Source of the DNA: Thermoplasmata archaeon
GTDB lineage: Archaea > Thermoplasmatota > Thermoplasmata > Lutacidiplasmatales > SKW197
Assembly (NCBI GenBank): GCA_026414225.1
Contig: JAOAJK010000002.1
Location: forward strand, 13,640 to 77,639
Direction: 5' to 3'
DNA: 64,000 nucleotides
The notes beneath the pieces were generated by a model. The model saw only the letters and a program-made list of their open reading frames with translations. It was not told where the DNA came from and searched no databases. Positions 49,408 to 54,947 of this stretch are shown one piece after another (position 1 is the first letter of the stretch; each line of letters begins with the position of its first letter). The translations under genes were made by a program, and so were the position numbers.

Positions 49408-50643
49408 ATGACGGATTCGCAGCTAGCAAGGTACATCTTCAAGAAAAAACTAGATGAAATCAAGGCCTGCAGAGGCAGGGCTACGGAGTTAATTACCCTG
49501 TATGTGCCTCCAGGAAGACAGATTTCGGATGTTTTGAATTACCTCAGGAACGAGTATGCACAGTCGTCGAACATAAAATCAAGGACCACGAGAAAGAATG
49601 TGATGTGGGCAATCGAATCGCTCATGAACAAGGTGAAGACCTACAAGGAGCCCCCGCCAAACGGCGTGGTGTTTTTTGTCGGTACAAAGGCGGTGGGTGC
49701 AGACCAGAGCGAGCCCGTTTCATTCGTGATAGAACCCCCGGAACCGATAAACACCTACATGTACCGGTGTGATTCCTTTTTCTACACCGAGCCCCTTGAG
49801 GACATGCTGCTCGAGAAGGACCTTTACGGTCTCGTGGTGATTGACCGGGCCGAAGCCACCGTGGGCTTCCTCCAGGGCAAGAGAATTACGGTGGTAAAAA
49901 ACAAGCAATCCCTTGTGCCTTCCAAGCATGGCAGGGGCGGTCAATCCCAGCATCGATTTGAGAGGTTGATTGAGCAGGCCGCCCATGAGTTCTATGTGAA
50001 GGTTGCGGACATATGCGCGGAAGCGTTTTTACCCCATCTCAGCAATTTGAAGGGAATCCTGGTTGGCGGGCCTGGTGCCACCAAGGAGTACTTCATAAAC
50101 GAAGGTTATCTGCACCACGAACTGATGAAGAAGGTCATCAAACCATTTTTTGACACTGGCTACACGGACGAATATGGCCTGAAAGAACTTGTGGAAAAGG
50201 CGTCAGAGGTGCTTGCAGACCTCGACCTGATGAAGGAAAAGAAACTCGTGCAGCGATTTCTAAACGAAGTACGAAAACCAGATGGAGGACTTGCAGTTTA
50301 TGGTGAGAAGGAGGTAAGGGACTGTCTGGAAAATGGTTACATTGACACCCTGCTTATTTCTGAAGCAAATCAGAAGATGCGGGTCAACCTTTCCTGCAAG
50401 TACTGCGGTTACAAAGAGGAAAAGACGCTACCGAAAGAACTTGTGCCTTCGAACGCAAGCTGTCCCACGTGCAATGCCGTGGTCGAAATAAAAACTACCG
50501 ACATAGTGGAGGAAATTTCGAAGGTGGCTGAGAACTACGGGACCAAGGTGGAGATTATCTCTGAGGAGAGTGAGGAGGGAAAGATGCTGCTCAACGCGTT
50601 TGGAGGGATTGCAGGAATTTTGAGATATGCAGTAAGCAGATAA
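49408..50643 (+). CDS. prf1: Peptide chain release factor aRF1
   Basis: NIKS motif (SSNIKSRTT), GGQ motif (HGRGGQSQ) and a C-terminal zinc ribbon. Confidence 0.85.
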   Translation: MTDSQLARYIFKKKLDEIKACRGRATELITLYVPPGRQISDVLNYLRNEYAQSSNIKSRTTRKNVMWAIESLMNKVKTYKEPPPNGVVFFVGTKAVGADQSEPVSFVIEPPEPINTYMYRCDSFFYTEPLEDMLLEKDLYGLVVIDRAEATVGFLQGKRITVVKNKQSLVPSKHGRGGQSQHRFERLIEQAAHEFYVKVADICAEAFLPHLSNLKGILVGGPGATKEYFINEGYLHHELMKKVIKPFFDTGYTDEYGLKELVEKASEVLADLDLMKEKKLVQRFLNEVRKPDGGLAVYGEKEVRDCLENGYIDTLLISEANQKMRVNLSCKYCGYKEEKTLPKELVPSNASCPTCNAVVEIKTTDIVEEISKVAENYGTKVEIISEESEEGKMLLNAFGGIAGILRYAVSR

Positions 50644-50648
50644 CACGG

Positions 50649-52529
50649 TCAGGGCTTTTTCCGGTGCCGCAGGAGAATTATGATGGATGCAATGATAAGA
50701 ACAGATACGATAACTGCACAGCCCCATATCAGCCAGATATACCAGGGACCGGGTGTGAACTCCTGAACCGCGGTGCTTACTGTCACGGTAATAGTTGTGG
50801 TCTGGGTATTCCCTGATGGGTCCGTAGCCCGTGCATGGATTGTGTTTGTACCTTCATGCAGGGTGAGGTTTGCCATCCAGAGAGAAGTACCCACCGCGGG
50901 TAACCAGTTCGCACCATCTACGCTGACTTCAACCTTCTGAATCGCGACATTGTCCGATGCGGTCCCTGTAACCACCACCGATGTGTTTGTCAGAACCGCC
51001 CCGTCGCTTGGATAAGTTATCATCACGGTTGGCTTCACTGTGTCAGTACCGTTAGATAAATGCTCGTACGCGCCGATGTCGTAGCCATCACCCTGCGGGC
51101 GGGAGACACCATCAAGGTCGATACCTGGTGCCCCCGTGGCAGTACCGTTATCTATTGCTGGGCTTCCTGGCTGCAGGTGATAATTTCCACCTGTGCCGGC
51201 TGCAGGATTGAGGAATCTAGGATCTCCGTAGAGATTTCCAGTGCCAGTACTCCCGATTTCCGTGGAGTTGTAGACAGTACTGCCGAACTGAACCACATTG
51301 TCGGTGCAGTTTGGCATGTAAAAGAGACAGGACTCCATCACAAGGTCAACTGCACCAGCAATGAATATCCCTGAATTCTGCCCCCTGGCGCAGAAGATTG
51401 TGTTCCTCACTGTCAGATTAATCTGGGTGGTGGGGTTATCGTACTGCACATGCATGAGATAGTTCTCGCCCACGAAATCGTCAATTGCAAGATTTGTCAG
51501 CTCAAATGTGGAGCCAGCATATTCCGTGTGAATGACCACTGCTGACCAGGGCATCGGTGTCATGTTGCCGCCTCCCCTACCATATATCAGCGTGTTCACT
51601 GCTTTGCTCCCGGTGCCCCACAGCTTGATGCCGTCGCAGCGGTTGTTGGCTACCACGCACTCGTGGATATATGTGTTGTTTGATTTGGAATCGAGTCCAT
51701 CACCGAGGTTGAAGGCAATGAGTGAGTTTGCAATCTCAATTGGGCCGTTTGAGGTCTCAATGCCGAAGCCATCCGGGCGGTCGTACGGACTGACATCGGG
51801 AACATCCGGTCCTGTGTAATAGTTGCCTTGATAGTACCAGCCCGCATATGCCAGGCTGCAGTTGCGGATAGTCACATTCCGCCAGCCCCCCTCCACACCG
51901 GCAGGGCCGCCAATAGACCCGAAACCACAATGCGAAATTGTACAGTTGAGAATCTTGAGTTCGTTCACATCAGCCATGTTCAGCCCGAACTCGTCGATAT
52001 GGTGGATGTAAATCTCCCGGAGGACTATATTTTCCGCGGAGCCATCGAGCGCCGCGATACCATCACGGAACATCGCGCCGTCGTTGCTCGTTATCTCAAT
52101 GTTTTCCAGGACGATGTATCTCTTGCCTGACAGGTCAACCCCAGCTCGCAGGTTATCCTGGCCTGCAAGCACGGGCCTGTGGCCCTCCTCACCACGGATT
52201 GTTATCCATGCATTTTGCATTCCCGAGTTTTCAGGAAGGATTATGTCTTCCTCCGTGCTTAGATTGTACCTGCCACCGAGAATCACGAGTGTATCACCTG
52301 GCTGTAACTGTCTCGACCCGTAGCCGGGGGTTGCCCAAGGCTTGGAGAGCGTTCCCGGGTTTGAGTTGTTTCCAGTCGGGGACACATAATACACATTTCC
52401 AAGCGGGGAGAACTGGGGACCAGGCGATGCAGGCGGATGGAACATACTCTGCGAGAGGATTCCACCGTGAACTAGAAGCATTGTAGCCAGGAGCATCGTC
52501 ACAGAACCGGGGAAGCGCGTCCTTCGCAT
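50649..52529 (-). CDS. Secreted/surface-anchored right-handed beta-helix (pectate-lyase/NosD-like) protein with Ig-like domain and C-terminal TM anchor
   Basis: Signal peptide MRRTRFPGSVTMLLATMLLV. Repetitive beta-helix coils (NxxIxxN/G periodicity). A BIG/cadherin-like region (TVKPTVMITYPSDG...). C-terminus PGPWYIWLIWGCAVIVSVLIIASIIILLRHRKKP. The ORF-track start at 52601 is probably too far upstream; the Met at about 52529 is preferred. Confidence 0.55.
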   Translation of the reverse strand: MRRTRFPGSVTMLLATMLLVHGGILSQSMFHPPASPGPQFSPLGNVYYVSPTGNNSNPGTLSKPWATPGYGSRQLQPGDTLVILGGRYNLSTEEDIILPENSGMQNAWITIRGEEGHRPVLAGQDNLRAGVDLSGKRYIVLENIEITSNDGAMFRDGIAALDGSAENIVLREIYIHHIDEFGLNMADVNELKILNCTISHCGFGSIGGPAGVEGGWRNVTIRNCSLAYAGWYYQGNYYTGPDVPDVSPYDRPDGFGIETSNGPIEIANSLIAFNLGDGLDSKSNNTYIHECVVANNRCDGIKLWGTGSKAVNTLIYGRGGGNMTPMPWSAVVIHTEYAGSTFELTNLAIDDFVGENYLMHVQYDNPTTQINLTVRNTIFCARGQNSGIFIAGAVDLVMESCLFYMPNCTDNVVQFGSTVYNSTEIGSTGTGNLYGDPRFLNPAAGTGGNYHLQPGSPAIDNGTATGAPGIDLDGVSRPQGDGYDIGAYEHLSNGTDTVKPTVMITYPSDGAVLTNTSVVVTGTASDNVAIQKVEVSVDGANWLPAVGTSLWMANLTLHEGTNTIHARATDPSGNTQTTTITVTVSTAVQEFTPGPWYIWLIWGCAVIVSVLIIASIIILLRHRKKP

Positions 52530-52614
52530 GGCAACCATATTTTCTGGGATGTATTTAAAAATTTTGAGGTCTACCAGCAAATTTTTATAGCTATGGTGCA
52601 ATCATGGTTCCGAG

Positions 52615-53364
52615 ATGTACAATCCTTCGTTGAGAAAGATTGATGAACTTGTTCTCGGCTACCTGAAGGACAAACAGCTCAGGGCTGAAGAGGTAGGTGT
52701 TAAACCCCTCGTTTTGCTCATAGAAAACAGGAGATTGCACGAGCTGCTGGTTGAAAGTGTGAATGCCCAGCGAAGCCCTGACTGGCTCTACGATGCTACG
52801 GCCCCGCTCTATTTCGCAAAGCTGCCTGGAATTGAACTATCAGTTGTAGGTGTGCTCCCACCGTCGCATGCTTTTCTAACCGAAATCGAGGTGCTGAAGC
52901 ACCTCGGTGCAAGAATGTTTGTTGGTGTATTTGAAGCCATAGGGGTGGGTACGGGTGCCGGCAAACTTTTCCTGGTTGAAAGTGCGGCCTGTCTTGATGG
53001 GGCTTCTTACCGTTATTCGGGAGGTAGAAGGGAAATCAGTGCCAGTTATCGCCTCCACAAATTTTTGAAAGCAATATTTGAGATGGAGGAGATCAAGATG
53101 GTCGAGGCGAGAGCAGGTTCCATGGATACTCCTTATCTCCTCCTCGAAAACGATGTCCAGTATTTGCGGGCAAACAGGGTGAGCCTTATTTCGTTTCATA
53201 TTCCCCCGCTCTACGCCTTCAGTTTCTACTCGGGTTGCGAGGCAGTTGGACTGGCAGTAACAAGGGAGGACCTCTTGCTTAAGCCGAAAGTTGCAACCGC
53301 TGGGCTCTATGAGGGGCTTGCAGACATCCTTGCCAGACATCTGCATGAGACAGCATTCGTTTGA
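52615..53364 (+). CDS. Divergent PNP/UDP-phosphorylase (MTAN/PNP) fold protein lacking the canonical Gly-rich phosphate loop
   Basis: Manually alignable to DeoD. [38 protein letters not shown] aligns with [51 protein letters not shown] aligns with VIGMGACTDS. MVEARAG aligns with GVEMEAAG. Its stop overlaps the start of the GTPase gene. Confidence 0.4.
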   Translation: [249 protein letters not shown]

Positions 53365-54305
53365 TAAACTTTGTACATCACAACCTTTTAATCTCCGTGA
53401 GGGATATACCCATCATGAAGAGATTGGTGAAGAAGATTGCGTTGCTTGGAGATGGAGCGGTCGGGAAAACGAGTTTGATTGCAAGATATGTGCACAATGC
53501 ATTCGATGAAAGTTACATCCAGACAATCGGAACGCGGGTTTCAAAGAAGGAGGTGGCGGTGGAGACAATTGAGGACAGGTTTTCGATTAACCTCATAATC
53601 TGGGATATCCTAGGACAGAAGGAATACCGGGGTGTCCACTTCAATGCTTTTAAAGGGGTGGAAGGGGCAATAATGGTGTGCGATATTACAAGAAGGGAAA
53701 CCCTTGATAGTTTGGAGGAATACTGGATTCCCTCGCTGAAGAAGGTGACAGGGGAAATTCCACTCATATTTTTTGCAAACAAGTCAGACCTTATTTCCGA
53801 AAGAAAATTTGATTTTGCAGACCTCCAGAAAATTGCGAACGAAAATCTGCATACTGGCGCAGGAGGCAAACTCAAAAATGCCTTCCTCACCAGTGCCAAG
53901 ACAGGCGACAATGTGGAGGTAGGTTTCAAGCACATGGTAGCATTTCTGATGCTCCTGGAGGATGAGGAGAAGAGGGATGCCAGGAGTTTCATAATTGATT
54001 CATTGCTCCGCTCGATCGAGGCGATGGATGTGGACACCAGCACCCTGCATGGTGCCCTCGACGCAATCATGGTGGATTTCACGACAACCTTTGGGAATGA
54101 AAGCCAGGCAATGGACCTGTTAAGGGAGGCGTTTAAAGAGGCAAATCTGACGCTCAAAGAACCCACTTTCGTGGGTGTGGAAAAACTCATCTATGCCCTG
54201 TCGAGGAAGGAGCGGACAGCAGGGAAGCCCGAGGAGGTTATCAAGGCAAATCTGGAAAAACGGTTTTTGATGCTGAAGAAGGCAAAAAACCCCGGGACTT
54301 CCTGA
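53361..54305 (+). CDS. Rab/Ras-family small GTPase (eukaryote-like) with about 140-aa helical C-terminal extension
   Basis: G1 GDGAVGKTS. Switch I ESYIQTIG resembles Rab ESYISTIG. G3 IWDILGQKEY resembles WDTAGQE. G4 FANKSDL. G5 TSAKTGDNVE resembles Rab ETSAKxxxNVE. The probable start is the internal Met at about 53415. Confidence 0.7.
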   Translation: MINFVHHNLLISVRDIPIMKRLVKKIALLGDGAVGKTSLIARYVHNAFDESYIQTIGTRVSKKEVAVETIEDRFSINLIIWDILGQKEYRGVHFNAFKGVEGAIMVCDITRRETLDSLEEYWIPSLKKVTGEIPLIFFANKSDLISERKFDFADLQKIANENLHTGAGGKLKNAFLTSAKTGDNVEVGFKHMVAFLMLLEDEEKRDARSFIIDSLLRSIEAMDVDTSTLHGALDAIMVDFTTTFGNESQAMDLLREAFKEANLTLKEPTFVGVEKLIYALSRKERTAGKPEEVIKANLEKRFLMLKKAKNPGTS

Positions 54306-54428
54306 AGTTCTGGCTTTTTTTAATACTAACTTCACCGAGTGTGAAATTAATTAGAAAACTTTATATAGTAGTGCATACATACTCGTTTCTGATGACAAAC
54401 GAAGGTTAACAACTTGGAGGTGATACAC

Positions 54429-54947
54429 ATGTTTGGAAGAAAGAAGGATGATGAAAACAAAATCGAAATCCGGAAGAAGGATGTGGGTATTATGAGCAGG
54501 GACGACCATGACCCCTTCGAGGAGTTCGAGAGGGCCATGAGAAACTTTGAAAGGGCCTTCTTCGAGATGGCATTCAGAACACCGTTCTCATTCAGGAGAG
54601 AAATCGTAGAACCAGAGATACGGGCACCGTTCGTTGACATGATAGACACAGGCAAGGAATTCAAGGTGATTGCGGAGATGCCTGGGGCTACAAAGGACAA
54701 GATAGATATCTCAATCTCCGGCAACACCCTTGAGATTTCCTCTGAAACTGGCACCGAAAGCGAGAGCACAGAGGGAAATGTAGTCCACAGGGAGCGGAGC
54801 TTCAGGAAATTCTACAGATGCATCGAACTGCCCGAGGACATAATTCCTGAGAAGGCAACATCCAAACTGAACAACGGGGTCCTTGAAATCGTGCTGCCAA
54901 AGAAGAACCCCACTGAAAAGAAGAAGGTGAAGGTGAACATTGAGTAA
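54429..54947 (+). CDS. hsp20: Hsp20/alpha-crystallin small heat-shock protein
   Basis: ACD core [26 protein letters not shown]...[17 protein letters not shown] lies 6 nt upstream of the ATG. Confidence 0.8.

Follow-up and report, generated by a model that had tools for sequence, protein, structure and literature searches.

Several small GTPases that resemble eukaryotic Rab proteins, or that stand beside small conserved genes, have been described in archaea. A Rab protein from Thorarchaeota (Thor-Rab, PDB 7EZB) was reported in 2024 (Commun Biol; PMC10933270), and Surkont and Pereira-Leal (2016; PMC4915359) described Rab-like proteins of Thermoplasmatales and Aciduliprofundum as divergent long branches without an extended C-terminal region, in trees that placed the archaeal Rab-like proteins with poor resolution. 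In the vesiculation operon of Euryarchaeota (PMC10927574), the GTPase ArvA is annotated with PF01926, Arf is the Pfam family closest to it, and the genes arvB (DUF2073) and arvC (DUF2072) come after it; for MglA/MglB we used PMC4316618. We analysed a stretch of 64,000 nucleotides (nt), referred to here as the window, from the metagenome-assembled genome of a Thermoplasmata archaeon (GenBank assembly GCA_026414225.1, contig JAOAJK010000002.1, positions 13,640 to 77,639). It contains a gene for a Rab-like GTPase directly behind an open reading frame, termed ORF1, for a divergent protein with the fold of nucleoside phosphorylases. An initial annotation, made from the raw sequence, had proposed that the two genes are translationally coupled and could form a small signalling or regulatory pair. 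Our analysis points to a different reading, to which we assign a probability of about two in three: these are two separately transcribed genes, which are neighbours by local synteny within a narrow Thermoplasmata clade and do not constitute a coupled module.

The first evidence for this reading comes from the gene boundaries. ORF1 covers positions 52615–53364 on the forward strand and codes for a protein of 249 amino acids (aa), which is 100% identical to the NCBI protein N3F63_01470 and whose N-terminus, MYNPSLRK, is kept in all orthologues. The GTPase gene had been assumed to start with an ATG overlapping the stop codon of ORF1, but what overlaps this TGA at 53361 is a TTG, the non-conserved start of the mechanically predicted reading frame. 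The first ATG of the GTPase gene is at 53415, yielding the product MKRLVKKIALLGDGAVGKT, in which the G1 motif (P-loop) occupies residues 11–18, as in other small GTPases. With this start, the gene for the Rab-like Ras-superfamily GTPase extends over 53415–54305 on the forward strand (296 aa), and 50 nt separate its ATG from the stop of ORF1. The called orthologues are 292–296 aa long, and their genes start 47–65 nt past the upstream stop.

The spacer contains the block AACCTTTTAATCT (53382–53394, forward strand), which lies at −33 to −21 from the GTPase ATG and resembles a transcription factor B recognition element with a TATA box (BRE/TATA). All 13 nt of this block are identical, and equally far from the ATG, in the window, in the related loci L001/L015, L002 and L010, and also in L013/L014, where the GTPase gene is detached from ORF1. 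Because synonymous sites are saturated between these lineages (synonymous divergence, dS, of 1.1–4), the identity of 13 noncoding nt indicates that the block is under constraint. In view of the general architecture of archaeal promoters, both the composition and the distance of AACCTTTTAATCT fit a BRE/TATA element, suggesting that it is a putative promoter of the GTPase gene itself, from which a leaderless mRNA would be produced. The 50-nt gap, found in similar length in the relatives, together with a TATA-like box that is kept even where the GTPase gene stands alone, shows that ORF1 and the GTPase gene are not translationally coupled as had been proposed.

Comparable elements are present around the adjoining genes. 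A TATA-like box, AAATTTTTATAG (52579–52590, forward strand), is located 25–36 nt upstream of the ORF1 ATG (−36 to −25); the block AAATTTTTATA occurs upstream of ORF1 also in L002, L010 and L011, and TAAACCTTAATAC in L001/L015. Judged by archaeal promoter architecture, AAATTTTTATAG is a putative ORF1 promoter, which would give rise to a leaderless or short-leader mRNA. Ten nt after the stop of the GTPase gene, a T7 tract (54315–54321, forward strand; read from the sequence) represents a plausible intrinsic archaeal terminator, and the same place is taken by a T7 tract in L010 and a T4 tract in L002. Further downstream, the region ahead of the Hsp20 gene (54348–54431 in the window) is strongly conserved there and in the orthologous loci, containing CTTTATATAG and then the Shine-Dalgarno sequence GGAGGTGAT. 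The simplest reading of these elements is that ORF1, the GTPase gene and the Hsp20 gene are three separate transcription units. The Hsp20 gene shows a TATA-like box, CTTTATATAGTAGTGC, and then a leader some 55 nt long, with GGAGGTGAT at its end ahead of the ATG, in contrast to the apparently leaderless ORF1 and GTPase genes; its mechanically predicted start, a TTG at 54414, is probably wrong, the likely start being the ATG at 54432.

The second line of evidence is the order of the genes in related genomes. ORF1 and the GTPase gene are same-strand neighbours in the window and in three further lineages (L001/L015–L017, L002–L004 and L010). They belong to a longer block consisting of a gene which we take from its translation to be aRF1 (49408–50643 in the window), ORF1, the GTPase gene, the Hsp20 gene and a gene for a CDC48-type AAA ATPase. 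Of the flanking genes, aRF1 precedes the pair in L001, L010 and L015, and Hsp20 and CDC48 come after it in all four lineages. Because unrelated housekeeping genes belong to the same conserved block, the neighbourhood of the two genes represents general synteny. It is also broken: ORF1 of L011/L012 (71% identity) is followed by the gene for methionyl-tRNA synthetase on the other strand, and the GTPase orthologue of L013/L014 (79% identity) occurs without ORF1, Hsp20 and CDC48, with a divergently oriented DUF3198 gene as its upstream neighbour. The pair is therefore split in at least one lineage, since the L011/L012 and L013/L014 contigs possibly represent one organism.

The same picture was obtained for more distant relatives. 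Scanning genome contigs with an 11-sequence alignment for the subfamily of nucleoside phosphorylase-I (NP-I) proteins nearest to ORF1 yielded 80 loci, and none of these 80 contained a Ras-like GTPase within 6 kb. Conversely, no neighbour resembling purine nucleoside phosphorylase (PNP) was found next to the GTPase paralogues P0014 and P0045. The PADLOC defence models matched neither ORF1 nor the GTPase nor two members of the nearest NP-I subfamily, and an anti-phage defence system with a PNP-type effector was discarded as an explanation on this ground. Of the expected conservation of the pair across genomes, the adjacency in four lineages was borne out, but the two genes are split in L011/L012 and L013/L014 and are part of a longer block where they do adjoin. 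Their adjacency is thus not kept beyond general synteny or across distant relatives, and with 0 of 80 NP-I loci containing a GTPase, the idea of a dedicated two-gene system was not sustained.

The nature of both proteins had been read correctly from the raw sequence, including the loss of a Gly-rich loop in ORF1, as profile, fold and motif analyses confirmed. The 249-aa protein had been considered similar to PNP or methylthioadenosine nucleosidase (MTAN). As a single sequence, ORF1 matched the Pfam family PNP_UDP_1 (PF01048) with E = 0.011 and 15.6 bits, below the gathering cut-off of 25.1. A word-indexed search with ORF1 returned five clusters at 90% identity, namely its own protein and four orthologue clusters, all of them from Thermoplasmata where named. 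An exhaustive HMMER search with a profile of the five orthologues produced 86 representatives, and the ten closest matches from outside the family (E = 1e-18 to 7e-9) all matched PF01048 at 91–125 bits when scanned. Across 225 columns, alignment of the ORF1 profile with the nearest NP-I subfamily by hhalign resulted in a probability of 99.5% (E = 1e-22). Nothing among the PDB sequences matched the profile built from the ORF1 orthologues, and a scan of metagenome contigs with the ORF1 profile gave no relatives.

An AlphaFold2 model of ORF1 was calculated from a 40-sequence alignment dominated by true NP-I proteins and reached a mean local confidence (pLDDT) of 93.6 and a predicted template modelling score (pTM) of 0.91. 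Its best Foldseek match was the methylthioadenosine phosphorylase of Sulfolobus (SsMTAP, 1jdv; E = 2.8e-18, template modelling (TM) scores of 0.77/0.81), with uridine and purine nucleoside phosphorylases of the hexameric NP-I type next in rank. ORF1 shares the fold of SsMTAP (1JDS/1JDV), bacterial uridine phosphorylase (UP) and DeoD PNP with TM scores of 0.75–0.81 and is homologous to these enzymes by profile. It is a very divergent member of the NP-I (PNP_UDP_1) superfamily by descent and fold, and in comparison to the NP-I enzymes its family is limited to a handful of Thermoplasmata lineages. The ratios of nonsynonymous to synonymous substitution rates (dN/dS) of 0.08–0.12, which include the detached copy in L011, show that ORF1 is a real gene under purifying selection.

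The active-site motifs of ORF1 were read from an alignment with SsMTAP (1jds) and 4lnh and from the hhalign alignment. The Gly-rich loop, canonically GIGGPS, is replaced by LPPSHA; in the alignment this stretch stands opposite the GxGxPS of nucleoside phosphorylases, as the initial annotation had stated. The phosphate loop containing Arg86 and Thr89, FIRYGTTGAL or, in the nearest subfamily, FIGLGxAGSL ((R/G)xGxAGS), has become GVFEA--IG with a deletion of two residues. At the ribose clamp, (D/E)ME(T/C) or DMETSA, ORF1 reads SFHI within ISFHIPP (SLYI in P0005), so the Met-Glu pair binding ribose is replaced by Phe/Leu-His/Tyr, and the YRE motif conserved in the nearest subfamily is YLL. Relative to SsMTAP, the equivalents of Gly21, Arg43, the Arg86/Thr89 loop, the GIGGPS loop and the Met-Glu clamp are lost, and the position of Arg25 keeps Arg or Lys in the ORF1 family. 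Retained residues are E92, G98, G104, D128-G-x-S-x-R-Y134, D171-T-P-Y174 and E218-D219; in common with NP-I enzymes, ORF1 has the Glu of the EEL helix, the D-x-P-Y strand and the acidic general-acid position. The latter is occupied by E218-D219, with SD(E/N)L changed to (R/K/T)EDL. In the alignment, the phosphate site and the ribose-binding Met-Glu pair are absent, and the acidic E218/D219 are the only active-site elements kept.

Going by PNP, UP and MTAN, a protein without the Met-Glu pair and without the G-S/T-x-G loop should no longer bind nucleosides in the way that catalysis requires. ORF1 has neither, and we therefore consider it a probable pseudoenzyme. ORF1 would descend from a widespread, uncharacterised and catalytic NP-I subfamily of the hexameric type, which is marked by the motifs EEGTSxHY, WTTDAPYRE, DMETSA and SDEL. 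It has kept the fold, whereas the phosphate- and ribose-binding residues common to all characterised NP-I enzymes are lost; most likely it no longer cleaves nucleosides and has a binding or scaffolding role.

The nearest NP-I subfamily itself (loci L018–L097) contains the motifs EE(L/M)IACGA, GLGxAGSLQ, EEGTSxHY, WTTDAPYRE, DMETSA and SDEL and is without the phosphorylase Arg of the RxGS/T loop (IGLG vs. IRxG). Its members occur in Chloroflexota, Bathyarchaeia, Methanomassiliicoccales, Promethearchaeota, Bacillota, deltaproteobacteria and other groups and reached no NCBIfam equivalog cut-off. The subfamily is widespread, apparently uncharacterised, and nearest to 4LNH.

Several observations weigh against the reading of two independent genes with a degenerate ORF1 product. 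The adjacency in four of the five lineages is what a functional pair would show, and the ORF1 family and the GTPase orthologue group appear limited to the same narrow clade, with five clusters each at 90% identity. No T-rich terminator is present after ORF1, which makes read-through co-transcription into the GTPase gene possible. The AlphaFold2 run with the five ORF1 orthologues alone gave an unusable model (pLDDT 47.8), and the polar positions kept in ORF1 (E92, D128–Y134, D171–Y174 and E218–D219) make a residual or new activity possible.

A functional signalling pair, in which ORF1 would bind a nucleoside, a nucleotide or the GTPase and would act as a regulator similar to a guanine nucleotide exchange factor (GEF), a GTPase-activating protein (GAP) or a guanine nucleotide dissociation inhibitor (GDI), or else as an effector, appears unlikely when these points are set against the remaining data. 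Although the same-strand adjacency in four lineages has persisted despite saturated synonymous divergence, aRF1 and CDC48 are equally syntenic while being unrelated, and in L011/L012 and L013/L014 the two genes no longer adjoin. The restriction of both families to the same small clade and the purifying selection on ORF1 after the loss of its catalytic motifs would also suit a pair, but the detached ORF1 is still under selection, the 80 NP-I relatives have no GTPase and the GTPase paralogues no PNP-like gene beside them, and neither protein has a PADLOC match. The missing obvious terminator after ORF1 has to be balanced against the lack of any start/stop overlap and against a promoter-like block that travels with the GTPase gene.

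The alternative that ORF1 is still an enzyme with a remodelled site, unrelated to the GTPase and acting as a nucleosidase, a hydrolase or on another substrate, is in our view doubtful. The strong purifying selection (dN/dS of about 0.1) is in line with such an enzyme, and so are the invariant charged residues R53, D56, D60, R133, R138, E140, E156, E158, E178, D180, E218 and D219, the likewise invariant H242 and the acidic residue kept at the position of the general-acid Asp. The nearest subfamily, already without the phosphorylase Arg, may even be hydrolytic. However, the Met-Glu pair is replaced, the G-x-A-G-S loop is deleted and the Gly-rich loop is changed to LPP in ORF1, and we know of no characterised NP-I enzyme that works without these three elements.

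The GTPase consists of a G domain (53415–53954, forward strand; approximately residues 1–180) and a C-terminal extension. The motifs G1 to G5 are complete, with GDGAVGKT, T37 in YIQTIG, IWDILGQ (DILGQ), NKSD and SAK, and the motifs ESYIQTIG, IWDxxGQ and TSAKTGDNV, which had been taken as Rab signatures, were all found. Among the Pfam families, Ras scored best (E = 5.9e-30, 104 bits, cut-off 21.6), followed by Roc (3.6e-26, 92 bits), Arf (3e-9) and MMR_HSR1 (0.006), and TIGR00231 (small_GTP) was matched at 6e-18. In a search of the PDB with the single sequence, the best match was the Thorarchaeota Rab 7ezb (E = 9.6e-24, 88 bits), followed by Rab21, Rab1, Rab43 and other Rabs, with RhoA scoring slightly lower; almost all of the best matches were Rabs. 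When a profile of 12 G domains of the family was used, 60 of the 60 top PDB matches were Rabs, and Thor-Rab reached 130 bits. The designation as Rab-like is justified at the level of similarity to solved small GTPases. Because the switch-I Thr and the Gln of DxxGQ are present, the protein is predicted to be a competent GTP switch, and its dN/dS is 0.02–0.08.

The similarity to Rabs is uneven at the RabF positions. The consensus for RabF1 to RabF5, reportedly set out by Pereira-Leal and Seabra in 2000, is IGVDF, KLQIW, RFRSIT, YYRGA and LVYDIT, and the GTPase reads IGTRV, NLIIW, EYRGVH, AFKGV and MVCDIT at these positions, with 11 of 27 residues identical to the consensus. RabF5 and RabF2 match fairly well, RabF3 and RabF4 poorly. 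The C-terminus ends in LKKAKNPGTS, and the last 100 residues contain no Cys and no prenylation motif. None of the Rab-type regulators GDI, TRAPP and Roadblock was seen next to the GTPase.

In comparison to the described systems, the GTPase shares the Ras-superfamily G domain and the full set of G1–G5 with Thor-Rab and with Rab1, Rab21 and Rab7. Like the Asgard Rabs it is devoid of a C-terminal cysteine, whereas eukaryotic Rabs have a prenylatable one (CC, CXC or CAAX), in place of whose tail the window GTPase carries a conserved domain. The expectation that the protein is Rab-like rather than MglA- or Arf-like held, since its best solved relatives are Rabs and it is not MglA-, Arf- or ArvA-like. 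The ArvA system likewise combines an archaeal small GTPase with small conserved neighbouring genes, but was rejected as a match because the best Pfam families here are Ras and Roc, MMR_HSR1 reaches no better than the value given above, and the gene lies between a PNP-fold gene and Hsp20/CDC48. MglA/MglB was rejected on the basis of the canonical DILGQ at G3 and the absence of Robl_LC7 from all locus tables. A Roco protein was rejected as well: despite the 92 bits for Roc, the C-terminal 112 aa showed neither COR nor any other Pfam match, and there are no leucine-rich repeats. In the scheme of Wuichet and Søgaard-Andersen, the GTPase would be an unclassified member of the Rup type.

Helix alpha5 is followed by a poorly conserved linker and then, at the C-terminus, by a conserved domain about 100 aa long (54000–54302, forward strand; approximately residues 196–296). 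About 115 residues follow helix alpha5 and about 130 follow G5, close to the roughly 140 aa estimated initially. The domain shows the pattern D-x-I-x-x-D-F ... A-M ... P ... L-x-x-x-E ... N-x-x-x-R, which is kept across the 120 closest homologues, with D32, F38, P66, L78, E82 and R99 invariant in alignment A3. A profile of the domain gave chance-level matches only against Pfam and PDB sequences, and nine short fragments on tiny contigs, uninformative as to its distribution, among a set of 5.8 billion proteins. Neither Thor-Rab (182 aa) nor the eukaryotic Rabs contain this domain, which is confined to the family of the window GTPase. In this family it would take the place of the prenylated tail of eukaryotic Rabs, and presumably it is this domain, not a lipid anchor, that gives the contacts for effectors or localisation. 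The Rab-like proteins described by Surkont and Pereira-Leal (PMC4915359) come from the same taxonomic group and are likewise Rab-like by motif and HMM, but the window family differs from them by its extension; as the comparison is by description, they may be a different family.

The GTPase family is large: more than 1,555 matches reach E ≤ 1e-10. Each of the best 120 is 264–319 aa long and composed of the G domain and the extension. Named matches are nearly all from Thermoplasmata, with one from Altiarchaeales, and the NCBI Prokaryotic Genome Annotation Pipeline (PGAP) already names family members 'Rab family GTPase'. The orthologues of the window GTPase are 79–94% identical, and single genomes carry several paralogues. 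In GCA_038891235.1, for instance, the orthologue lies beside an ORF1 homologue and a 46%-identical paralogue beside PRPP synthetase, and L007 has two copies of the family within 5 kb. That the GTPase is a recent horizontal acquisition of a eukaryote- or Asgard-type Rab, possibly arriving together with ORF1, is highly improbable, and a horizontally acquired GTPase of the eukaryotic signature protein type, which the initial annotation had considered, is not supported: its best solved relatives are indeed Thor-Rab and then eukaryotic Rabs, but the identity to Thor-Rab is confined to the G domain, the 120 closest relatives share its length and C-terminal domain within a multi-paralogue family of Thermoplasmata, the GC content of 0.49 around ORF1 and the GTPase gene does not differ from that elsewhere in the window, the gene is located within a conserved housekeeping block, and Thermoplasmatales Rab-like proteins had already been reported as long divergent branches (PMC4915359).

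Some further observations concern the paralogues. P0020, P0025, P0045 and others have DVLGR, DVVGS or DIIGR instead of DxxGQ; being without the catalytic Gln, which the window GTPase keeps, they may be slow or GAP-dependent switches. Two DUF3198 proteins with 70–72% identity are encoded in L013 (4486–4923, reverse strand), adjoining the detached orthologue of the window GTPase, and in L005 (7959–8342, reverse strand), two genes from a 46%-identical paralogue. These matching neighbours suggest that the orthologue moved with its promoter block into the locus neighbourhood of the paralogue; a recurrent association of DUF3198 and GTPase genes would be an alternative.

The neighbours of the two genes are ordinary archaeal housekeeping genes. 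On the minus strand, there are genes which we take, from their translations only, to code for agmatinase and aIF5A. Syntenic counterparts of the presumed aRF1 in the relatives have eRF1 Pfam domains, and an M50-like peptidase is also among the neighbours in the window. Between aRF1 and ORF1, the window codes for a surface protein of 650 aa on the reverse strand (50649–52601) with a right-handed beta-helix, a Big_7/Ig domain and a C-terminal transmembrane anchor. This gene is present at this position in the window genome only, and because aRF1 directly abuts ORF1 in L001, L010 and L015, it represents a lineage-specific insertion or rearrangement.

The other end of the syntenic block is variable, as shown by the different genes past CDC48. 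In the window, CDC48 is followed by a gene for a 153-aa protein without Pfam match and then by one for a DUF4129/DUF4064 membrane protein, whereas L002–L004 contain a BsaWI-like restriction endonuclease and an N6_N4 methyltransferase (L002, 10594–12551, reverse strand). Large STAND-type proteins with AAA_16 and TPR domains are encoded just upstream of ORF1 in L002–L004 (L002, 2839–5886); in L007 (1139–3865), one is encoded upstream of a GTPase paralogue, at a distance of about 1 kb. No such protein is present at the corresponding position of the window, and the recurrence in L002–L004 and L007 may be coincidental.

As a system, the combination of ORF1 and the GTPase does not hold, and the importance of the finding is limited accordingly. 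What remains is an archaeal family of Rab-like GTPases whose C-terminal domain is undescribed and, beside its member in the window, a clade-specific degenerate NP-I homologue. A search of the literature on Ras-like GTPases in Thermoplasmatota and on pseudoenzymes of the nucleoside phosphorylases yielded nothing relevant. It is a speculative and rather improbable prospect that a clade-specific pseudo-nucleoside-phosphorylase came to sense nucleosides or nucleotides as the regulator or effector of a single Rab-like paralogue, with the C-terminal domain of the family replacing lipid anchoring; if true, a pseudo-NP-I regulator together with a Rab-like GTPase would represent a novel type of small-GTPase module in archaea. 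Current views are unchanged unless an interaction between ORF1 and the GTPase, or a function of either, is demonstrated. ORF1 is of interest as a candidate pseudoenzyme that has the NP-I fold, has shed the catalytic motifs and is under purifying selection. Because the published archaeal Rab-like proteins are described as having no C-terminal extension, the Thermoplasmata Rab-like family, with its domain of about 100 aa and no detectable relatives of this domain, is a useful non-Asgard point of comparison for prenylation-free targeting of Rab-type switches.

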